A stretch of DNA of 64,000 nt from Prorocentrum cordatum. Taxonomy: Eukaryota. The position numbers were made by a program, and so were the translations under genes. Location: contig CAUYUJ010000336.1 of the NCBI GenBank assembly GCA_963575745.1, positions 248,001-312,000 on the forward strand, read 5' to 3'. The notes under the pieces were generated by a model. It saw only the letters and a program-made list of their open reading frames with translations, had not been told where the DNA came from and did no database searches. Positions within the stretch are counted from its first letter, which is position 1; the number at the start of each line of letters is the position of its first letter. Of this stretch, positions 3,017 to 57,732 are shown one piece after another.

Positions 3017-3760
3017 TGTCCTAGTCTCGTAGGGCTCTTTGACGGCATCGGCGGCCTCGCGGCGCCGCTCTCGAGGTTGCAAGGCCTGCATGGCCGCAAG
3101 AGCTCCCTGTTCTACGAGGTGCCCAGGATCTTCCGGCTCTTCCAGCAGGCGTGCGAGCGGCGGTTCTACTCGCTGCTCGAGAACGCGGCGAGCATGACAG
3201 ACGAGAACGTCAATGCCATGTCCAGCTGCATGGGAGTTAAGCCGCACCTCGTCTGCCGGTCGGTCATGGCGCCGCGTCGCAGGCCGCGGCTCTTCTGGCT
3301 TAGCTGGCAGCTCCGGGTGGCACCGCCGCTGCGCCTTGTCGACAAGGTCTGCTGCCTCGAGGTCATGGCAGACAGCGGGCCGCTGCTGGGCATCGAGTGG
3401 GAAGGCCGGGGGGGTCGCTGGGGCGGGCGCCCGCTCCTCTTCCCGACGCTGGTGTGCTGCAGGCCGCTCCCGAAATTCCCGTCGGCGGCGCGCGGCCTGG
3501 CCTCGGCGTCCGGCGAGGCGCGAGCGCGCTGGCAGGCCAATGTGTTCCGCTAGCACGTTGCGCTGCGCGAGGAGAACAATCCCGTCCAGGATTGTTCTGG
3601 GAGGCTGCCAGGGAGGCTGCCAGAGAGAGAACGGGTGCTCGGGTTCGACGCGGGTCACACCGCTGTAGCCACGATGGGCTCGAACCCGCAGGCAGCCTCG
3701 GACGTCAGGGCCTTCCTGCTTGGGAACAGCTTCAGCTTCTATGCGGCCGCATGGGCTGTG
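3017..3760 (+). pseudogene. DNMT3-like C5 DNA methyltransferase domain with internal deletion
   Basis: Motif I GLFDGIGGL (~3035-3060), SSLFYE, motif VI LLENAASM, motif VIII RPRLFWLSW, ERVLGF, motif X LLGNSFS. The motif II-IV segment with the catalytic PC appears to be missing. Confidence 0.85.
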
Positions 3761-9608: not shown

Positions 9609-9630
9609 TCTGTAGCCATTTTGGCTCCAG
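9609..9630 (+). other. Dinoflagellate spliced-leader relic (20/22 match)
   Basis: TCTGTAGCCATTTTGGCTCCAG versus DCCGTAGCCATTTTGGCTCAAG. Confidence 0.85.
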
Positions 9631-13179: not shown

Positions 13180-14329
13180 GCGCGGAGAAACCTCCGAGAG
13201 GAGAAACGTCGCCGGGCACATTGACGTGCCCAGCCGCGGCGGCACGCACGGGGCCTGCCCGCTCTGCGGCCTTGGGGAAGCCACCACCGAGCACGCATGG
13301 CGTTGGTGCCCCGCCCTCGTCCTAGCATGGGCGCAGGCCAGAGCCCGAGAGCATCCCCACTCCCTGGCCACAGCCATCTGCACCCACGGGACGCACCAAC
13401 GACTTGTCTGCCGCATCCTTCATCAAGCCTCCTACCGCTACTGCTTCAACCAAGACTGCACCCCCCTTGGTGCCCAGGAGGCCGCCAGGCTCATATTGCA
13501 AGGGATCGTGGTCCCCGACTGCGACCAGCAAAGCGACAGCGACGACGACTGGCACGAGGGGCAGCCCCCCCCCCCGAGCCAGCAGAGACATCGGTGTGGG
13601 CCCCAATGCTCACGGCCTGTGACACATGCAACCCGCAGGGTGGGACTGGCCTGCGCGTCAACGGCGCCGCCAGGCCACACATGGGCCGACAAGCCGATCG
13701 AGCCGGCGGGGAGGCCCGCCGCCTCCCTGTTGCGAGTCGGAGCACCTGCTCTGGAGACCGCCTCGCGGTGCTACAGGCGACGGATTCGAGGGCCGCCTGG
13801 ATGATCACATGCCAAGGGTGGTTCCCCTGCCCCCGCACAGACCCTGACCCGTCTGCGTACTGGATCAGGAGATACTGCCGCGCCTGCGACACCCACGCAG
13901 TCACCCTGTGGGCCGGCAGATCCATGGAGCAAGGAGACGAGATTTTCGTGAGCGACTCCAAGTTTCCTTCAGCAGACGCAGCGCAGTGGCCTTACGAGGT
14001 CACGTTCGACGGAGGCGCCAGGAGCATCCTGGGAAGACCCAAGGTTGCCAGCGCAGGGGCCATCCTGTGGAAGCACGACCTCAGCAGCGGACCCCTCAGG
14101 GTGGTCGCTGCAGCGGTGGTCGCCCTCCCTGGAGACGACAGCGCGCAGGCTGCCGAGGCAGCGGGGTGCAGGGCGGGCCTCGCCCTTCTTCCCCACGTGG
14201 ACAGCCCAGTCAGGTGCGCACGGGTTGTAGGCGACAACCTCGCCGCCATACGGTACGGCGCGGGCGCCGGGCGCTACAGGAGGCCCCACCTTGCCCAACA
14301 GATGGACTACGCCCTGCGTCAAGTGACCA
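13180..14329 (+). pseudogene. 3' region of an older LINE ORF2: zf-RVT-like zinc knuckle plus RNase H, interrupted by insertion
   Basis: CPLCGLGEATTEHAWRWC; RNase H motifs VTFDGGAR..AGAILW, AQAAEAAGC and VVGDNLAAI. The domain resumes at 20872. Confidence 0.8.
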
Positions 14330-14409
14330 GAGCAGAGCAGAGCGCCAGAAAACGTCCCGGAAGGACGGCCCTATGAGAGCCCGGCGGGGGCGCCGGAGCG
14401 CCAGAAGGC

Positions 14410-17400
14410 TCATTCGTTGTAGTTGCCGGAGTGGAGGAAGCGACGCATGTAGTCCAAGAAGCCTTCTTCACGAGTATTCCACCATGGTAGGTTCTGGGGC
14501 AACACCCACCATTTAGAATCGTTGTCGGTGTCGACCACGTCATGTAGATAAGATACAATGTCATCATGCCAAAACTTCTTTTGCCCGCCATGTCGGCGAA
14601 AGGCTGGGCGTAGGTCGTGTGTACATGGGTCCCAACTTGCACTCAGTCGCGTCCATCTGTCGTGATCGTGGTTGGCCACACGTGCTGCGAACGCCCATTT
14701 TCGCTTGAAGTATACGTCGGTCCAATCGTCGACTCGTGCTCGTTTGGCGTGTGCCAAAGCGGTGGAGGTACTTCTCCGTATGAAGTGAACCCAAGACTCA
14801 GATCCATCGTCGTTGTCTCCGTCGGTTGCTGTTGTCGGTGCTGGTGTCGGTGTCGGTGTTGGTGCTGGTGCTGTCAGTGTTGGTGCTGTTGTCGGTGCAG
14901 GTGCTATTGTCGGTGTTGGCGCTGTTTTCGATTGGTGCTCGTGCTGGTGCTGGTGCTGTGTTCGGTGTTGGTGCTGGTGCTGTGGTCGGTGCTGGTGCTG
15001 GTGCTGGTGTCGTCGTCGTCGTCGCCGTTGGGTGTTGTTGACGGTCCTGGTGTCGGTGCTGGATTCGGTGTCGTTGACGTCGACACGTGTGCTGTTGTTG
15101 GTGTTGCAGCTGGCGCGTGCTGTCTGTCTGCTTGCTTCCAGCGTGTTCCGTCTTCCCGGCATATTGATGATCAGTCGGAGCATTTTCCGTTGTGTACGTT
15201 GTAGCGTGATGAGCATACCCTTGGTGAGTGTCCACGAAGAGCAACCGTACATAACGCATGGTGTGATCGTGCCGCTGAAGAGTCGGAGTCTGCTGTGCAA
15301 TGGGAGTTTTCTGTTGGTAAGTTCACACCGTAGTGTGTGAAACTTCGACCATCCCGCGGTGATCCTGCTTTTTTCAGCTCATGTCCGTGGAAGTCGTGGA
15401 ACGATAATTTTTTGCCCAAATATTTCGTACTCTGGTCGTTGGGTAGAATGTATATGCGTGCACCATCTAAGACGATGTGCGTAATTGTTCTGCCAGCCCT
15501 CCGGCTGACGTTGGTGAGCATATTGGTCTTGTCGGGGTGAAGTGAGAGTCCACAGCAGGATGCTTTGTTCTTCAAGTCGCGCAATAATCATGTAAGTTGG
15601 CGAAGGTTCGGGGCGTACAGCAGAACGTCGTCTGCGAAGCGTAGGTTCGTGATGCTTGCTTCTTGAGCAAAGCCGAGCTTGATGCCAAACTTTTTGCGTT
15701 GCCAGCCGGGCTTGATTTGTCGGAAGATATGCTCCAGCAGCGCATTGAACAGGAAGGAACTGAGCGGATCTCCCTGCTTCACACCCCGCTGTATGCTAAA
15801 ACTGCGACTGGAGGTGTCAGTGCGGACAGTGGCCGTCTGATCATTGTACATGTGCAGAATGAGGATGATGTACGCTTCGGGAATATGTTGCTGTCGTAGA
15901 GCGTCCCATAGGTGTTTGTGGTCCACGCAGTCGAACGCCTTCTTGAAGTCGATTGCTGACGCCCAGAGCGGTAACTGCCAACAGTGTGATTGCTCGTGCA
16001 GCATTGCCGTCGTGAAGAGGTGGTCATCCGTGCTGAAGCCTCGCCGGAAGCCAGCCTGGTCAGGGCTCTGTTGTGCGTCAAATGTGGCTTCTAGTCGATT
16101 GCAGAGGAGGCGGGACATGAGTTTGTACAGCAGTGGGATGATGGCGATCGGTCTGTAGTTTTGCGGTAGCTTGGGGTCCCCAGATTTGTATATCACCGTT
16201 ATCGTCGTTCTCTTCCATTGTGTGGGTAATGGGTGGTTTGGCTTGATAATGTCGTTGTAAAGCTGAAGTAAGTGTGATTCAATGGCGGTTCCCCCCGCTT
16301 TGAGAAGTTCGGCTGTGAGTCCTGCAGTGTCGCTGCACTCGCCGTTTTTCAGTTGCTTGATTGCGTGTCGGAGCTCTTTTGGTGTGAGTGGTGGTATGCT
16401 CGAGTCTGTTGCCGTGTCGGTGTTGCTAGAAATGTCGCTGTCGTTCTGCGGTGTTTTATAGAGTTGCTCGTAAAAGGTGGCGAAGACGTCTGCGATGCTC
16501 TGTCTGCCAGTTGTTTCGTCGCCGTTTGTGGTTGTCATTGACGCGATCATGTCTTTTTCTCTTGGACGTTTTCGTGCCCGCGATTCTCTTGAGGTCTTTG
16601 AACTGGCACACAATGGTTTCAATCATGGCGTTTTCCCGGACACGCTTGATGGTTCGAAGCTGTTTCAAAATGCTCAGTGTACTCCTGGTGGTTGTGTCGG
16701 CATGCGGTGTGCTGCGCCGTCGGTCAATGAGGTCGCGCAGCTTATTGTTTGATGGGACGTCGTCTTCGTGTGCTTGGTGTCGCGGTGAACTGTCGTGGTA
16801 CTCATGGTAGTCGCCGTGAGCTTGGACAAGGGCTTTGGTGATGTGATTGTTCCTGTCGTCAGTGCTGGCTGCGACGTCGTGGGCGTCGAGTCTGTGCTGT
16901 AGGTAGTGTTGGTACAGTGGATCGGCAGCAGGTGGGCGCGTAGACCGATGATTGGATCGTTTTGTTCGTTTCTTCCGCTTCTTCTCCGGCGTGGCGTCGA
17001 AAACAAGCCTCATACATACCGCTTGATGGTCGGACCTGAGGTCTGGAATAGCTGTTGCAAACGAGTCATGCACCTGGTTGCGACGATATTTGTCGATGAG
17101 TATGTAGTCAATCTGTGTTTGGGTATGGTTTTCCCCATTGCTGGTATAAGGGAAGATGTTGCGATCATGCTTGTAGAACAACGTGTTGGTGATAAGCATC
17201 TTCTGTGAAGTTGTCCATTCTCGTAGCCACGTCCCACGTGTGTTGCACGCTCCGATTCCGTGTGGGCCAATTGTGAGTCTCCGGCCTCTGTTGGCATTCT
17301 CTTCCTCGTCCGCGTTGATGGGGTGTTTGCCAACCTGTGCGTTGAAGTCTCCAGTGATGATTGTGGTGCGCTTCTGCTTGGCGGCTTCGTCGTGGAGCGC

Positions 17401-19545
17401 GGTCAGGACGTCGTACATCTGCTGGACGTGAGCGTCGGGGTACCTGCAGTGTGGGAAATAAGCCGTCGCAACTCTCACCTTGCAGGCGGATGTGTCGAGG
17501 TCGATGTAGGCGATGCGCTCGCTGATGCGTGTGAAGCATGTGATGCTGTGCACGTGCCGTCGGTGGATAAGAAATGCTACGCCTCTTGATGTGGTGGTGT
17601 GGCCCGCTGCCGCAAATACGTGGGAACCCAACTTCCTTGTCCACATCTCTCGTTCTGTCGTCCTCCAAGTTTCATTTATTGCCACGATGTCCCATGCCAT
17701 GGTCTCCAATTCGCAAATCAGCGTGTCGATGGAGTCGTCTGTAGAGAGGCTTCCCGCGTTTTTGTGGATGACGGTGAACTGGAAGCGACTGGAGTCGGCG
17801 CATTGGTTTCCGAGATTTTGTTGAAGCTGTCTTTGCTCTTGTCGCACTGTCAGTCTGGCAGAAGAGCTGGAGTCGGAACCTTCCAACCTGGATGCTGGTG
17901 TCGTGCATCGCCGGCGCAAGATGCATGCTGGGAGGTCGCCAGAAACGTCGCTGTAGGCACGTCTTCCTCCTCCTCTTCCTCTTCCACCTTCCCCACTGTT
18001 GGGTAAGACGTTTGTTTGGGCTGCGCCAGACGTTGTACAGCTGGTTGTTGAAGGCTGGATGTCAGCGTGTTGAGCTGCTGGGAGCTGGAGGTCAATAGGT
18101 AGAGGTGGGAGTGGAGAGTCGAAAGCTGGTCGTCGAGGGTCAGAGTGCACTGGTGGAAGCTGTAGGTCGATAGGTGGAGGCGGGAGTGGAGAGTCGGAGG
18201 CTAGACGTTGAGGGTCGGAGCGATATGGTGGAAGCTGTAGGTCGATGGGCGGAGGTGGGAGTGGAGAGTCGGAAAGTGGACGTTGAGGGTCAGAGTGAAC
18301 TGGTGGAAGCTGTAGGTCAATAGGTGGAGGTGGGGGTGGAGAGTCGAAAGCCAGACGTTGAGGGTCAAAGTGAATTGGTGGAGGCTGTAGGTCGATGGGC
18401 GGAGGTGGGGGTGGAGAGTCGAAAGTTGGACGTTGAGGGTCAGAGTGAACTGGTGGAAGCTGTAGGTCGATAGGTGGAGGTGGGATTGGAGAGTCGAAAG
18501 CTGGATGTTGAGGGCCAGAGTGAACTTTTGGAGGCTGTAGGTCGATGGGCGGAGGTGGGAGTAAAGAATCGAAAGGTGGACGTTGAGGGTAAGAGTGAAC
18601 TGGTGGAAGCTGTAGGTCGATAGGTGGAGGTGGGAGTGGAGAATCGAAAGCTGGATGTTGAGGGTCAGAGCGACCTGGTGGAAGCTGTAGGTCGATGGGT
18701 GGAGGTGGGGGTGGAGAGTCGAAAGTTGGACGTTGAGGGTCAGAGTGAACTGGTGGAAGCTGTAGGTCGATAGGTGGAGGTGGGATTGGAGAGTCGAAAG
18801 CTGGATGTTGAGGGTCTGAGTGAACTGGTGGAAGCTGTAGGTCGATAGGTGGAGGTGGGAGTGGAGAGTCGAAAGCAGGACTGTGAGGGTCAGAGTGAGC
18901 TGATGGAGGCTGTAGGTCGAAGGTTGGAGGTGGAGAGTCGGATGATGGAGGGTGGAGGTCGGAGTGTTGTGCTGGTGTAAGCTTGAGGTCGATAGCCTCG
19001 AGCGCACGGTCACCACCTCCAAAGCCTGTCCCGGAAGAGCTGGTCGCTGGGATACTGTCAGAACCGGTAGGTTTGCCCAAATCCAACGCATCACCTGCAT
19101 AGAAAAATGAGTGGGGAGAAAGTTGTTCCATAGGCGGCCGCTCCACACTGTCGGAACTGGGGTGTGCGGAACTGGGGTTGGGAACAGGAGTCGGCATGAT
19201 GATAATCTCTCTGTCGCGGAAGACGTGCGGAGTCCGAAGCCAGATCGTGCTCTCGACGGTGGAGTCGACGCGGTTGGAGCCTGAGTGATCGTAGTCGGCG
19301 ATGTTAGAGGATGATGAAAATGTAGACGCCGATGGCAAACAAAATTGGGAGAAACGATGTCCGGGGTCGGAGGGCGGAGGTGGAATGCTGGAGCCGAAGG
19401 GATGACGCATTGGAGGGATGCAGGTAGCTTTGCCCCGAAGCCCAGTGACGTCGTCGCGGTAGCTGTAGGTAGGGAAATGTTTGCGTTCGTCGATGGTGTC
19501 GGCTCTGGTGCTGATCCGCGGCTCCACCAGCACCAGCCGGACATC
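14410..19545 (-). pseudogene. LINE ORF2: apurinic endonuclease plus reverse transcriptase
   Basis: EN motifs HKNAGSL, AINETWR, GDFNAQVG, QIDYILID, SDHQAV. RT motifs NYRPIAII, QAGFR, DFKKAFD, GVKQGDPLS, RFADDVLL, KYLG. Lesions: frameshift ~16560, in-frame TGA at 15588-15590, frameshift ~15370. Confidence 0.92.
18080..18960 (-). repeat. 75-bp coding tandem repeat, about 11-12 copies (PIDLQLPPVHSDPQxPxFDSPxPPP)
   Basis: TGTAGGTC recurs every 75 nt (18161, 18236, 18311...) and the frame stays open into the endonuclease. Confidence 0.92.
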
Positions 19546-20655
19546 CTACTTTGACTCCGCTCCCTTTGATCTGCCTTTCGGGTTGCCCTTCATGCCCGTG
19601 GCAGCCCGCGCCAATAGTGTGTCACATGTTTCCGTAAGCTCTTGAAGTTGAGAATGGTTGTGTAATTCGTGCCATGTCTTCCAAGTTTCTGCCCAATCTC
19701 GCTTCAAGCTATTGCCATCTACGGTTATGGTGAGAGCGAGCTCCCCTCCCACATGCACCTGATAAGGATTATCGTCCGTAACTCTGATGGTGTACGGAAG
19801 CTGCATCGTCTCCTTCAGCATGTACTTCACGCCGAAGCAGAAGTTCCGGGTGGCTCGGTCCGTTGGTGCCCGATCTGGTGTAGCCCACACATTTTTGCCA
19901 CCGCATGTCAGTTTCATGCTCCTGATGAGAGCAACTGCCGTGTCGCGGTCCAGCATCGAGTCGAATTCAGCAAACAAAATATGATTCGTGTCGCCTTTTG
20001 TGTAGATGTTGCGTGCGATAGGGCCGTCGTTCGTCCCAAGTTTTCCCTGTATCCATTCTGCGGCTGTGTTGTTCATGTCAAAATTCTCTAGGTTCCCGAA
20101 TACAGCGGTGACCGCGCGTTTTCCGTGGACGTGGTAGGCGGTCGCTGATGCGGTAGTGTTGCCAGGTGGTCTTGGGAACCCTTTCCCACGTACGTTGGCC
20201 ACCTCGCGCTCTAGCTCATTCAGCTTTTCCCCGATCGTGGAAGTCATGCTGGGGGCTGCTTCCAATGTTGCCGGTAAAGGTCTTGAAGTTGCTTGTTTAG
20301 CTTCAACGGCTGCCATACGCGAGGTGAGGTCGTCAATCGATGCTTGTAGTGGTTTCAAGTCTGCGTGCGATACTCCGTGCTTCTTGATCGCGGTAATGAC
20401 GGTCTTGATCGGCTCCAGCTGCTCTTGTAGCATGCGTGACAAAACACCTGCCGTCAAGGGCGTATTGTCCTCAGCTGCGAGACGTTGTTGAAATAATGCC
20501 TGCTGTTGTTTGTTGCCATCGTCCGCACTTCTGACGCCATCTGCGGCAATTCCAGCTGTGCTGTCCAATCCGTCCATCTCGTGCAACGGGCTGTTGATCC
20601 TCTGTTGCTTTGCCTCAGGCCGCGTTGGTGTACTGAGAAGATGACGTTCCGGCAT
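19546..20655 (-). CDS. LINE ORF1, 369 aa, intact (coiled-coil segments followed by a possible RRM-like region)
   Basis: ATG-initiated open frame of normal complexity between the 5'UTR and ORF2; heptad-like LQASIDDLTSRMAAVE and LNELEREV. Confidence 0.8.
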   Translation of the reverse strand: MPERHLLSTPTRPEAKQQRINSPLHEMDGLDSTAGIAADGVRSADDGNKQQQALFQQRLAAEDNTPLTAGVLSRMLQEQLEPIKTVITAIKKHGVSHADLKPLQASIDDLTSRMAAVEAKQATSRPLPATLEAAPSMTSTIGEKLNELEREVANVRGKGFPRPPGNTTASATAYHVHGKRAVTAVFGNLENFDMNNTAAEWIQGKLGTNDGPIARNIYTKGDTNHILFAEFDSMLDRDTAVALIRSMKLTCGGKNVWATPDRAPTDRATRNFCFGVKYMLKETMQLPYTIRVTDDNPYQVHVGGELALTITVDGNSLKRDWAETWKTWHELHNHSQLQELTETCDTLLARAATGMKGNPKGRSKGAESK

Positions 20656-20749
20656 CCCTGCCCAGAGTGGTGATACGAGAAAGCAGCGAGATATTGTAGT
20701 AGCGAGTGTAAGTGAATCGCGCGAAAAGATGATGTGGATTATGTGGAAG

Positions 20750-20830
20750 ACGGGAATGTAAGGGGGTACGGGAATGTAAGGGGGTACGGGAATGTAAGGG
20801 GGTACGGGAATGTAAGGGGGTACGGGAATG
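20750..20830. repeat. 18-bp tandem repeat, about 4.5 copies, in the LINE 5'UTR
   Basis: Perfect ACGGGAATGTAAGGGGGT units. Confidence 0.95.
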
Positions 20831-20844
20831 AAAGGAACAAAGCA

Positions 20845-20865
20845 CTTGAGCCAAAATGGCTACGG
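20845..20865 (-). other. Intact dinoflagellate spliced leader (21 nt perfect) at the LINE 5' terminus
   Basis: Reverse complement reads CCGTAGCCATTTTGGCTCAAG. Confidence 0.97.
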
Positions 20866-20871
20866 GGGGTG

Positions 20872-21010
20872 GACCAACGGGGGGTGGACCCTCACATGGC
20901 AGGCTGCTCGACGGCGAATCAATGAGGCCGCCGACCGACTCGCCACCATTGGGGTCTACTGGGCCGACGTCCTAAGAACCGACGGACACCGCTCGGTTCC
21001 TCCTGCTCCT
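20872..21010 (+). pseudogene. C-terminal remainder of the interrupted RNase H
   Basis: TNGGWTLTWQAARRRINEAADRLAT carries the terminal N..AD.LA motif and is in frame with ...ALRQVT at 14329 once the insertion is removed. Confidence 0.85.
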
Positions 21011-21106
21011 CCTCCTTGGGATGCTATTCCTGAGAGATTCAATTCAGCATCGGTGCTGGCACATCCGTGGTTGAAAGCTGGCCGAATACCACTATGTACG
21101 TCTTAA

Positions 21107-21279
21107 TATCGGGGGCGGCCAAGAGGGGGTTGATAGGGGGGTGGATATCATGGCGGGTGCCATGGCCTCTCCAGATTTTATGGCGCCTCCTCTGATTTCA
21201 TTACGACAGCGGCCCCCCTTGGGCCGCGCAGATGCCGCCGACCATGATTTGCGCCCTCCCCTCTTGGACGCCCCCGATA
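21107..21279. mobile_element. MITE (~170 bp) with ~20-bp TIRs and a probable TA target duplication
   Basis: TA|TCGGGGGCGGCCAAGAGGGG ... CCCCTCTTGGACGCCCCCGA|TA, one mismatch between arms. Confidence 0.8.
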
Positions 21280-21495
21280 ATCCAGCTTAATCGTTCAATT
21301 GGGCTCACTCTGGTTTAATCTGTGCAATTGCTGCTTTATCCGGCTCAGTGGTCCCTTAATCTGGCATAATTGGCCTCATTCGTTCTTACGAATGCCTCTC
21401 AGGAGTTGCTTCCTTCTCCTCCTCCTCCTCCTCCTCCTCTTCCTCCTCGTCCTCTTCGTCCGCTCCCCAATGTGAATCTCTCAATCGGCGCTCAG

Positions 21496-38657: not shown

Positions 38658-40804
38658 TCAGCAACCTTCCTCGCTGACGAGTTCGCGAAGCAACCCATCA
38701 AAGTGGGCCAACGACAAGGTGTCGGAGACTGGATACTCCCACTGGGTCACACCAGCGCCGCGGTTGAAGAAGTAGGTGTCGCCTGATCTCTCATCCACTG
38801 CACTCTCCCATCCTGCAGGGAGCAGCTGCGGGGCGGCGCGCGTCGCGCCGCCGCGCCTCCCCGAGAGCGGCGGCTCCGTCGGCACCACGCCCGAGAACGC
38901 AGTGAAGCGGTTCGCCTCGGCGTCATGCGCGCCGACGCCGCAGGTCGACTCAGGAGCGCGCGGGCTTGGCCCCGAGGAGGCCGCGGCCTCCTGGGCGGCA
39001 GCAGACGTAGAGCACTCAAGGGATGGCTCCCTGGAGGCCCAGGGGGTTGGGCAGCGGAGGCGAGGCCTGCAATGCCCGTCAATCTCCGCAGTGAGAGTCA
39101 CACATGCATCTTGTCGCTCGGGCTGTTTGCCTTCTCGGCGAAAGCGGCGGCGCTCGGCGGGCGCCTCAGCGAGCGCGGCAAAGCCGGGCGGCTCCGCTGG
39201 GGGGAAGACTGCCGGCGTGCCCCCAACTCCTTCGGCCGCGCCCTCCCGCACCTCCAGCTCCTCGTCGCTCGAGGGTGCCTCGAAAAGCTGCTCCACGAAT
39301 GCCTTCTCAATTGACTCCTCCAGGTTTCCCTCTACTTTCTCGCAGGACGACGTCTGGGCCTCCAGCCTGACCCTGCTGAGCGCTGCCACTGCCGCCTCTT
39401 CTCGAACGAGTGCATCGCAGACTGTATCTGATGACGTTTGGCCCAAAGTAGCACCACTGCCGACTGCCACTGTCTCTACTTGCAGGTCCTTCACCGAAAC
39501 ACCAAACTCGAAGCTGATGGCGTCGGGCCTCTTGGGCCCCTTCTCGCATTGACGGCCCTGCTGCCACTGGCGGCCATTCTCAGGCCTCTCCTGCCGCTGA
39601 CGCCCCTTCTCGCACAGATCTTCACTGCGAGCGCGGCGGCGCTCGGCGGGCGCCTGATGCCCCGAGCCTGCAACCCAACCATTATTGAAGGAAAGGCGAG
39701 AAGAGGAGGCAGAATTACACGAAAGTGAAGATGCACCGTGTTGTTTGTGCCGAGCGCTTTGCGCACGCTCAGGTTTTGCACGCTTTGCACGCGCCAGGTT
39801 TTGGCAAGTTACTGCATCGCAACACGCCTGGCTTGTGATTGCACCGCCCTCCGCCGATGGACAACCAACAATGCAGCTGATGGCATCGGGATCGTGCTTC
39901 AATGAACCACCACCCCTGAAGCTGACGGCATCGGGCTCGTGCTTCGGAGCACCGCCGCCCACGTGGCTTATGGTGTCGGGCTCGTACTCTGCAGGGCCTG
40001 CTGCAGCTGCTCGCCGCCCTCGCCAACCTTCTTGAGCCCATCGCTTTCCACCCTGTCCCCTGCGGGGCAGGGACCATAGAGCGGGCCTGGCTCGCCTGCG
40101 CCAGACGCCGAGCTGATGACGTTGGGCTCCACTGCCTGCCACTTCTCGCATTCCACCCTGGCCCCCGCAGCGCAGGGGTCATGGGGCGGGCCTGGCTCGC
40201 CTTCACCAGTAACCAGCCTGATAACGTTGGGCTCCACTGCCTGCAGCTTGTCGCAATCCACCCTGCTCCCCGCCACGCGGGGGTCCTGAGGCGGGCCTGG
40301 CTCGACTTCGCCTGCCGACACTTGCCGCCCAGCGCTGGACCTGAAAATATCGGGCTGCACTTCTCGAGTGGGAATGTTGTGAAGAGGAAGAGAACCACGG
40401 AAGAGAGAGTGAGGCCCCAAGAATTCGCAATCCTCCATCCAGGCTTCGAGGCCTGGTAGAATTCCGAATGCTGGGAAGAGCATGCATGCATCTGCGTCCA
40501 AGTTGGTACTGAGCTGGCTATCCTCTTTACCAGCCTCACCACACGCGCTATCGCATGCCTGGGCTGGCGCAAAGACGGGAGCTGAAGGATTAAACTGAGA
40601 CCAGTGGGTGGCCTTTGCACTGCAACCGACGCTGATTCTACAAGCAGCTCTCCATAAGACGCATATGTCATGCGGATTGCACCTGAACTTCCTAGTTCTG
40701 CACGCATAGCCCAGCCTCCTCATTGCTTTTGTAGCCGCACTTTGCGGCCTCCACACGGAACGCGCGGGTAATATCTCGTGGCCAGGCATCTCAGAAGAAT
40801 ACAC
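38658..40804 (-). pseudogene. Intronless frameshifted ORF with a PAM2-like motif, internal repeats and a C-terminal WW domain
   Basis: FNPSAPVFAP at ~40563-40597; WW LPAGWESAVDERSGDTYFFNRGAGVTQWEYP at ~38730-38826; repeated QAVEPNVI and EPDAISF units. Confidence 0.6.
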
Positions 40805-56752: not shown

Positions 56753-57732
56753 GCTCACGCGGGCCCACCATCCCTGTCAAATGCATTTACAAAGTTTAGT
56801 TGGGGCCCGCGCCATACACAATGAATGCAGCTCTTGCCCGCCGAGCCTGCACACACGATACCGCGGCCCTCCGACCCGTGGGCCTTGGTGCCGTCCGCTT
56901 CCCCATGCTTGAGTCTGCGGTTCTCCGACCCCTGGGCCTTGGTGCCGTCCGCGGCCTCGTGCAGACCCTCGCTCAGCTTCCCTGCCGTCGGTTTGGCCAC
57001 GTTCTTCTCCACCTGCGCTGCCGCCGGTCCGCACTCGCCCGCGCCCGTGCCCTCCGACTCGAGCGATACCTCATCCTCCAGCGCGAAGGTGTCCAGCACG
57101 ACGTCCCAGGCGTCACCCTCCAAGTCCCCCGCTCTTTGACGCCATCTTCCGACTCCGTTTCCTCCACGTCGGCCTGCTCCAGCCCGCTCCCGCCCTGCGC
57201 CGCCGCCGACGGCGCCACCGAGACGCCCAGGGCTTGCAGCACTCCGTCGGCCTTGGGCGAACCAGGCCAGGACGAAGTGCTCTGCCTTCTTCTGGAGGGG
57301 CGCCACCGCCCCGTCCAGGAGGCGCTCGAACGCTCTGGCATCCCATCCGTCAGGCAGCCGCGCGAACCCGCCCGCCGCCCCTGGCGGCGGCGAGTGCCGC
57401 GGTGCGTTGCCCGCCACCAGCGCCTCCTCCGCCTCGTCCAGGCGGGCGGCCTCGCAGCCCAGCAGCCTCCCCGCCGCCAGCGCCTCCCCGAGGGTCGGGA
57501 GGTGGCGGCCCCCTGCGTGCGCGAGCTGCCAGTGGACGTCCAGCGGGGTCTGCAGCTCCCGCACCCGCTTGCCGCACACGGCGCAGGCGTCGGGTCAGTG
57601 TTCGGGCGGAGGCCGCCGCCCCGCTCCTTCCGTCCGTAGGCCTCTGGCGCGCGGCCGAGCGCCTGCCGCGGGCGCGCACTGGCGCGAGGGCCTCCCGTAC
57701 GCCAGCCTCGCTTGGGCCACAATGGCTACGGA
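56753..57732 (-). mobile_element. About 1-kb SL-headed, intronless decayed retro-copy ending in a (CA)n tail
   Basis: SL relic at the 5' end, a broken ORF (RELQTPLDVHWQLAH...), and a microsatellite at the 3' end. Confidence 0.6.
57711..57732 (-). other. Dinoflagellate spliced-leader relic (20/22 match)
   Basis: Reverse complement reads TCCGTAGCCATTGTGGCCCAAG. Confidence 0.85.

Follow-up and report, generated by a model that had tools for sequence, protein, structure and literature searches.

A probable L1-like retrotransposon headed by the spliced leader in the dinoflagellate Prorocentrum cordatum

How does a retrotransposon come to begin with the spliced leader (SL) that its host joins to messenger RNAs? 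The question is raised by one locus in a 64,000-nt stretch of DNA from the dinoflagellate Prorocentrum cordatum, which is referred to here as the window and to which all coordinates of the element apply. Read on the minus strand, the DNA at 14330-20865 has the form of an L1-like long interspersed nuclear element (LINE) in which the first open reading frame (ORF1) is whole and the second (ORF2) is broken, and its 5' terminus is a perfect copy of the spliced leader that dinoflagellates use (DinoSL) from position 2 onward. It is very probably one genomic copy of an L1-like LINE, a non-LTR (long terminal repeat) retrotransposon, of a dinoflagellate, and this copy is inactive or nearly so. Its origin by retrotransposition from a trans-spliced mRNA, copied to within one base of the 5' end, is well supported. 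The features at the 5' end and the two copies of a candidate target-site duplication are as follows.

20845..20865, minus strand: spliced leader copy, DinoSL positions 2-22, perfect, forming the 5' terminus of the element (motif scan and shuffles)
20862..20890, minus strand: tandem duplication of the 5' flank, TGGTCCACCCCCCGT, period 15, 1.9 copies, 100% matches (tandem-repeat analysis)
20872..20876, minus strand: candidate target-site duplication, 5' copy, TGGTC (plus strand GACCA), weak, 5 nt with free boundaries (sequence)
14325..14329, minus strand: 3' copy of the candidate target-site duplication TGGTC (sequence)
20656..20844, minus strand: 5' untranslated region (UTR), 189 nt, 72% pyrimidine (sequence)

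The leader, CCGTAGCCATTTTGGCTCAAG, lies at 20865..20845 on the minus strand with 0 mismatches and points the same way as the ORFs. In 100 shuffles no leader match appeared, even when 3 or fewer mismatches were allowed. The window as a whole has three 21-nt DinoSL matches, compared with 0 expected by chance, and this identifies it as nuclear DNA of a dinoflagellate. An earlier note on this DNA, made by a model from the letters alone, had described a perfect 21-nt DinoSL at the 5' terminus followed by a 189-nt UTR; both were recovered, the UTR at 20844..20656. Position 1 of the published 22-nt DinoSL is given as D (A, G or T) in PMC8045281. The window has C at 20866, which is disallowed at that position, so 21 of the 22 nt are present.

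The leader is followed directly by TGCT in the window and by GGAG in L001, a relative of the element from a metagenome. Seven of the 21 leader sites in genome_contigs, a collection of prokaryote-labelled assemblies, resemble SL RNA genes (two of the seven being one site in overlapping loci), and at these sites the leader is followed by GTAC. The element has only the leader exon, joined at its last base to the UTR, and this points to a trans-spliced template. Had the reverse transcriptase switched template onto free SL RNA, or had the element inserted in a gene for SL RNA, intron sequence would have been brought in or left behind, which argues against both. The earlier note had proposed that the intermediate was a trans-spliced mRNA copied to its cap end, and this proposal has held up: the exon alone is present, it abuts sequence derived from the flank, L001 shows the same arrangement, and the cap end was reached within one base.

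The junction upstream of the leader is consistent with such a template. In the window, the second copy of the 15-nt flank duplication, a feature that the earlier note does not mention, overlaps the first 4 nt of the leader (CCGT). L001 has an analogous 17-nt flank duplication at 80-96 and 108-124, which overlaps the first 2 nt of its leader. The flank copy directly before the leader thus measures 10 nt plus 4 shared nt in the window and 15 nt plus 2 shared nt in L001, and in these two loci the original of the duplicated flank lies 1-11 nt farther upstream. The window and L001 have unrelated upstream flanks, each of which is locally duplicated. A flank copy of 14-17 nt that overlaps the start of the leader may be a signature of the joining of complementary DNA (cDNA) ends. 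Annealing by microhomology and extension before joining would explain both junctions, and if they are read in this way, the RNA template ended at the leader in the window and in L001 alike. The GACCA target duplication reported in the earlier note is indeed present at both ends of the element, but it is weak, and 6 nt (CACCCC, 20871-20866) stand between its 5' copy and the leader. By our own estimate, a 5-nt match with free boundaries would arise by chance in roughly 1 in 20 cases, and we treat TGGTC as weak evidence.

Relatives of the element bear on whether its leader is an accident. Metagenome contigs were scanned with an alignment of ORF1, which gave 10 loci carrying a relative of ORF1. 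The comparison covered four independent 5' regions, for which metagenome loci had to include at least 250 nt upstream of ORF1; the other loci are without the 5' region. The ORF1 of L001 is 40% identical to that of the window, and a perfect 21-nt leader stands 111 nt before its ATG in the same orientation, followed by a UTR that cannot be aligned with the UTR of the window. L003 has a decayed leader approximately 145 nt before the ATG, with 18 matches and 2 insertions (a score reached by 3 of 2000 shuffles), and then repeated GCTCAAG pieces. The intact element L002 has a weak partial leader match (reached by 73 of 2000 shuffles) within three tandem 14-nt units ending in GCTCAAG. The leader is therefore perfect in two of the four independent 5' regions, and the other two have decayed, leader-like pieces. 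According to the earlier note, its reading would fail if full-length copies elsewhere had no leader or had upstream sequence in common, and in this small sample no such copies were seen. Carriage of the leader is in all likelihood a property of this LINE lineage and not an accident of one copy. Because the leader is perfect in two lineages whose UTRs cannot be aligned, it appears to be renewed from host SL RNA in each cycle rather than inherited, and such renewal carries no information on the position of the acceptor.

L003 and L006 share upstream sequence, which was considered as evidence that the element extends upstream and was rejected, since 100% identity over 1.1 kb indicates the same locus. 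The match between L003 976-3974 and L006 1-3005 is 100% over 976-2075 of L003 and 76-97% thereafter, and the two are probably a single locus, or else chimeric assemblies that pass from one paralogous LINE copy to another. These contigs come from different records, which calls for caution in treating metagenome contigs as independent copies.

Other collections were also searched. A search for relatives of ORF1 gave two matches of near length and none of longer length, and neither viral_contigs (contigs filed as giant-virus genomes) nor genome_contigs yielded an ORF1 relative. The 119 leader-bearing stretches of viral_contigs had no tblastn match to the element's proteins. Among the ORFs of at least 250 aa downstream of leaders in viral_contigs, the longest 74 of 147 were scanned with Pfam and no RVT_1 was found. 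A leader scan of genome_contigs, which gave 19 loci, found no LINE match. In addition, DNA runs X1-X4 were compared with 19400-21300 at 80% likeness, and the best run, X1, contained 27% of the words. X1 contained near-identical as well as diverged pieces of ORF1, and X2 a near-identical piece of the UTR. The run contigs break in the 18-nt repeats of the UTR, and the leader bin gathers leaders from across the genomes in these runs. One joint in X2 connects 20865 to 20999 with 14 other letters between.

Several observations weigh against an origin from a trans-spliced message or limit how far it can be generalized. The first base of the 22-nt leader was not copied, as shown by the C at 20866. 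The target duplication is only 5 nt long, and a search of the flanks for a paralogous empty site found none, the flank matches being simple repeats only; for these reasons the placing of the element's outer boundaries depends on its leader and tail and on the duplicated flank. The sample is small, with four independent 5' regions and no other copy in the window, where self-comparison found neither a second copy of the element nor long direct repeats at its flanks. In two of the four regions the leader-like sequence is decayed or weak and could partly be chance or an artefact of tandem repeats. Finally, the run contigs at the 5' end are too short, and too mixed with other leader loci, to show other junctions.

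Downstream of the 5' UTR, the element is organized as follows on the minus strand.

19546..20655, minus strand: ORF1, 369 aa, intact, stop TAG at 19548-19546 (ORF list)
14410..19545, minus strand: ORF2, in the ORF1 frame directly after the TAG, with the apurinic-type endonuclease (APE), the reverse transcriptase (RT) and a C-terminal region, 2 frameshifts and 1 TGA (ORF frames and Pfam)
18071..18938, minus strand: 75-bp unit repeated 11.6 times with 86% matches, each unit coding for 25 aa of a proline-rich repeat, located after the ORF1 stop and before the APE (tandem-repeat analysis)
17026..17712, minus strand: Exo_endo_phos, APE, E 7.9e-8, residues 567-795 of the ORF at 16456-19410 (Pfam)
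16554..16558, minus strand: A5 run, where the change from the APE frame to the RT frame (frameshift 1, placed between 16456 and 16622) probably lies (frames and sequence)
15516..16493, minus strand: RVT_1 reverse transcriptase, E 6e-27, holding the in-frame TGA at 15590-15588 (Pfam)
15369..15374, minus strand: A6 run, probable site of frameshift 2 between the RT and the C-terminal region (frames and sequence)
14344..14409, minus strand: 3' UTR, 66 nt, after the ORF2 stop at 14412-14410 (sequence)
14330..14343, minus strand: microsatellite tail, approximately 3 units of GCTCT/CTCTG, the last 1-2 nt ambiguous with the target (sequence)

ORF1 has no Pfam match. Run against 1.84 billion proteins, a profile built from six relatives matched 830 representative clusters at E <= 1e-3; at E <= 1e-30 the number was 77. 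Judged by these sequence relatives, ORF1 is a real, conserved protein. Its AlphaFold model has a mean predicted local distance difference test (pLDDT) score of 60, with low confidence in the N-terminal half and values of 73-92 in most 10-residue blocks of residues 181-350. The modelled protein consists of helices at residues 45-155, a beta-alpha-beta-beta-alpha-beta (RRM-like) unit at 182-260 and a further C-terminal domain at 264-353. When the model was compared with the PDB by Foldseek, ranks 1-9 were taken by the human LINE-1 ORF1p trimer (E 8e-5 to 3e-3), with template modelling (TM) scores of 0.24-0.42 that are low because of the flexible helices. As modelled, ORF1 folds like human L1 ORF1p.

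The domains of ORF2 are those of an L1-like element. The RT region at 16493-15516 aligned in one frame in a tblastn comparison with the intact ORF2 of L002. That protein also has an Exo_endo_phos match (E 2.3e-7), and its closest match among solved structures is human L1 ORF2p (E 1.4e-27), with R2 proteins weaker. Both frameshifts in the window copy lie at A homopolymers and could be assembly errors of a kind typical of long-read assemblies. If they are, the copy may hold one true lesion, the TGA at 15590-15588, and be younger than it looks. With regard to the body of the element, the intact ORF1 (369 aa, 20655..19546) and the (CTCTG)n tail of the earlier note were found as described, the tail being short with three units. 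The note had also described an APE-RT ORF2 with about three lesions. The domains and the lesions, two frameshifts and one TGA, were found. ORF2 is not a separate frame opening at ATG 19544, since the frame of the APE is that of ORF1. The 75-bp repeat region is open in two frames, and this had misled the call of the ORF2 start.

The ORF1 frame is open again from 19545 to 16456, for 1029 codons starting with the one that follows the TAG. ORF1 and ORF2 form one frame that is split by a single TAG followed by G in all 10 loci that include the end of ORF1, namely the window, L001-L007, L009 and L010, with the rearranged locus L008 dropped. The positions are given here.

ORF1 TAG: window 19545-19548 (minus strand, including the G); L001 1458-1460; L002 4807-4809; L003 2891; L004 813
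ORF1 TAG, continued: L005 832; L006 1920; L007 502; L009 774; L010 1050

In L003 the frame past the TAG has 563 codons free of stops and then runs off the contig, and the first three codons after the TAG differ between the window and L001 by synonymous changes only. At the level of sequence, the conserved in-frame TAG-G suggests that an ORF1-ORF2 fusion is made by stop-codon readthrough. The TAG-G arrangement is new here and makes this a candidate for stop-codon readthrough in a LINE. A search for RNA structure behind the TAG gave no supported fold, the consensus reaching -11.4 kcal/mol with 1 compensatory pair of 22.

There is no poly(A) at the 3' end of the element. The microsatellite tail together with the missing poly(A) indicates that priming took place at the 3' end proper to the element and that the copy is not a generic processed pseudogene. 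A poly(A) 3' end would be expected of L1, and the term L1-like accordingly refers to the build of the element, with no claim of membership in the L1 clade.

An explanation that accounts for the whole locus, and that we hold with high confidence, is that it is a LINE copy made by target-primed reverse transcription of an SL-trans-spliced mRNA of the element. This outcome is predictable from known dinoflagellate biology. A source copy would have been transcribed, and the leader, as the DNA indicates, would have been spliced on at an AG immediately before what is now the UTR. The mRNA would then have been translated to an L1-type ORF1 protein and probably, through readthrough at the TAG-G, also to an ORF1-ORF2 fusion with endonuclease and RT. 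To judge from the DNA, target-primed reverse transcription would have started from the element's own short CTCTG-repeat tail, not from poly(A), and proceeded to leader position 2, after which the end of the cDNA would have been joined to the target by a 4-nt microhomology (CCGT) and a local duplication of the flank. At this junction the 3' end of the cDNA may have annealed to the upper strand of the target just upstream of the nick, been extended by 10-15 nt and then joined the free upstream end.

The 5' UTR opens with short tandem repeats in four lineages. The unit is 18 nt in the window (4.8 copies, 20750-20835, minus strand), 12 nt in L001 (2 copies, 140-163), 14 nt in L002 (3 copies, 3633-3674) and 14 nt in L003 (2 copies, 1789-1823). 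The units in L001, L002 and L003 include or end in the last bases of the leader (CAAG or GCTCAAG), and the repeats could be partial relict leaders or promoter elements. The UTR of the window has a lone AG, at 20659-20658, 4 nt before the ATG. A single AG compared with 3.5 expected was considered as a signal and rejected, as 9.7% of 5000 shuffles had counts as low and the shortage, which is not significant, results from the G-poor sense strand.

Two proposals concern how an integrated copy would be expressed in the next cycle, and we consider each of them unlikely. Under the first, the element would be promoter-less: a read-through transcript would be trans-spliced at the terminal AG of the DNA-encoded leader (joint 20844), and the 5' end would be regenerated each cycle. 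This agrees with the window and L001 each having exactly one leader and no truncated relict behind it, and the lone AG of the UTR would leave few competing acceptors. Read-through is conceivable, as a WW-domain gene (38661-40178) and a relict leader (57711-57731) lie upstream on the element's strand. However, having so few AGs is not statistically significant, one leader per copy would be expected just as much if all copies stem from a master without a DNA-encoded leader, and the repeated GCTCAAG pieces in L003 and L002 resemble partial relicts. Published relicts, moreover, are described in PMC3229502 as truncated after the AG at leader positions 6-7, which is thus the re-used acceptor; in the element the AG at positions 6-7 is preceded by C-rich flank. 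Under the other proposal, the leader would act as a promoter after integration through a TTT(T/G) core, or an internal promoter would lie in the UTR repeats, and the leader would persist or be replaced downstream of the start. All four lineages open the UTR with tandem repeats, and tandem 5' repeats are promoters in some LINEs, such as the monomers of mouse L1. Song et al. 2017 propose TTT(T/G) as a promoter, which would explain the single leaders of most retrogenes (PMC5585692). Yet a start downstream of the leader would leave 20659-20658 as the next acceptor and new copies would be without the 189-nt UTR, contrary to what is observed; and a leader inherited as element sequence should decay like the UTRs, whereas it is perfect in two lineages with 40% ORF1 identity.

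Two further explanations would deny the leader a regular place in the life of the element. A one-off chimera, produced by a template switch from LINE RNA to free SL RNA, or by cDNA contamination of the assembly, is very improbable. LINE reverse transcriptases are known to switch template at RNA 5' ends, U6-L1 chimeric pseudogenes arise by template switching of this kind, and the window has no second copy of the family. A switch onto SL RNA, however, would bring an intron starting with GTAC, and only the exon is present, with an exact 3' end; a perfect leader also recurs on L001 from an unrelated metagenome, and the flank duplication and the tail show genomic integration. We give practically no credence to a site-specific LINE in SL RNA genes, of which the leader would be part of the target. 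The leader does directly abut the element, but the remainder of an SL RNA gene does not follow in the downstream flank, the leader lacks none of its final bases, and the upstream flank of L001 is unrelated to that of the window, each being locally duplicated. The APE here lies N-terminal to the RT and is unlike the restriction-like endonuclease of the clades specific to SL genes, and an Rfam scan of the window gave nothing, whether SL RNA, 5S or other RNA gene.

The LINE copied from a trans-spliced message can be compared with several known systems. With LINE-1 it shares the two-ORF layout, the ORF1p fold and an ORF2 with APE and then RT. It differs in being without poly(A) and in that the host's spliced leader, instead of transcription from an internal promoter at +1, sets its 5' end. 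In human L1 the ORFs are separated by a spacer and ORF2 is translated by unconventional re-initiation; in the element, ORF2 lies in frame behind a single TAG and a 290-aa proline-rich repeat precedes the APE. UAG readthrough is used in gag-pol of murine leukemia virus, which likewise has one frame with a single UAG followed by G, but the element has no supported stimulatory RNA structure and its readthrough is inferred. A spliced leader next to a LINE is also found with SLACS, CZAR, CRE and NeSL-1, which insert in SL RNA genes, split the leader of the target and use a restriction-like endonuclease. Here, in contrast, the element starts with a complete leader exon, its flanks do not belong to an SL gene, and it has an endonuclease of the APE type. 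The L1Tc/ingi elements of trypanosomatids are, like this element, LINEs in hosts with SL trans-splicing. Their Pr77 internal promoter is described as giving abundant unspliced, translatable transcripts (PMC1874656, PMC8190864), so that these elements bypass the leader, which the dinoflagellate element carries.

The closest parallel is provided by DinoSL-tagged retrocopies, as described by Slamovits and Keeling 2008 (via PMC3229502) and Song et al. 2017 (PMC5585692), in which a DNA-encoded leader likewise lies at the 5' end in the orientation of the ORF. In our case, what was copied is the bicistronic message of the retrotransposon, so that the machinery itself bears the tag, and the 3' end is a CTCTG microsatellite instead of poly(A). 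There is no truncated relict leader in the element or in L001, while relict-like GCTCAAG is present in L003 and L002. Most tagged genes in Song et al. 2017 are stated to carry one leader (PMC5585692), and a relict leader is thus optional. We found no description of a leader-headed LINE in the literature; the supplementary tables of Song et al. 2017 and Gonzalez-Pech et al. 2021, which may list RT genes with relicts, lay outside this search.

Dinoflagellates hold thousands of leader-tagged retro-copied genes, and the text of Song et al. 2017 calls the reverse transcriptase behind them unknown (PMC5585692). The same paper reports the Gene Ontology term 'RNA-dependent DNA replication' as enriched among leader-tagged retrogenes (PMC5585692). 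A 2018 review expresses a preference for LTR elements as the source of the enzyme (PMC6050394). The leader-headed LINE shows that LINE mRNAs are trans-spliced like host messages, that a LINE RT can copy through to the leader, and that a recognizable junction is left behind. We tentatively propose, as a possibility that we rate below even chances, that a large dinoflagellate lineage of L1-like elements (the 830 ORF1 clusters), whose 5' end is set by SL trans-splicing, whose ORF2 is made as a readthrough fusion and whose RT routinely reaches the capped leader, is the enzyme source of leader-tagged retrogenes. If this is true, LINEs would be the long-sought enzyme for these retrogenes, which make up about a fifth of dinoflagellate genes. 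Against the link to retrogenes, the preprint 10.1101/783902 presents leader-tagged genes and RT genes as products of independent processes. The flank-duplication junction can be sought on retrogenes, and this makes for a testable comparison of who makes them. The element also stands in contrast to the trypanosomatid LINEs, in which an internal promoter bypasses the leader. A promoter-less element that regenerates its own 5' end would, if real, be more striking than a leader-headed LINE alone.

Some observations on the remainder of the window and on other leader sites are added here. The GC content of the window is 51-73% per 2 kb. Pfam scans of the flanks and the rest of the window gave a WW domain at 38661-40178 (minus strand), a sub-threshold match to MINT_RAM7 and nothing else. 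The segment at 21128-21300 (260-430 nt upstream of the element) is repeated in very many copies in DNA runs X1 and X2, with a summed contig depth of 2428 in X1 and 195 in X2 compared with 2-40 over the element. Decayed leaders with 2 mismatches each, at 9610-9630 (plus strand) and 57711-57731 (minus strand), head other presumed retrocopies in the window. Simple repeats lie directly before both of these leaders and likewise before four leader sites in the genome_contigs loci L130, L133, L142 and L144; they may reflect a target preference or be a by-product of the junction. L002 has a (CAAT)n tract approximately 70 nt upstream of its 14-nt repeat units.

The leader is also widespread among the contigs filed as giant-virus genomes. 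In viral_contigs loci L011-L129, the perfect leader occurs at 137 distinct sites, often 0-30 nt before ORFs of giant-virus type such as topoisomerases, ribonucleotide reductase, MutS, helicases, Bro-N and DUF4116. Viral sequences resembling DinoSL are among the topics discussed in PMC9651163. In L077, the leader site stands before an RNA-virus polymerase.

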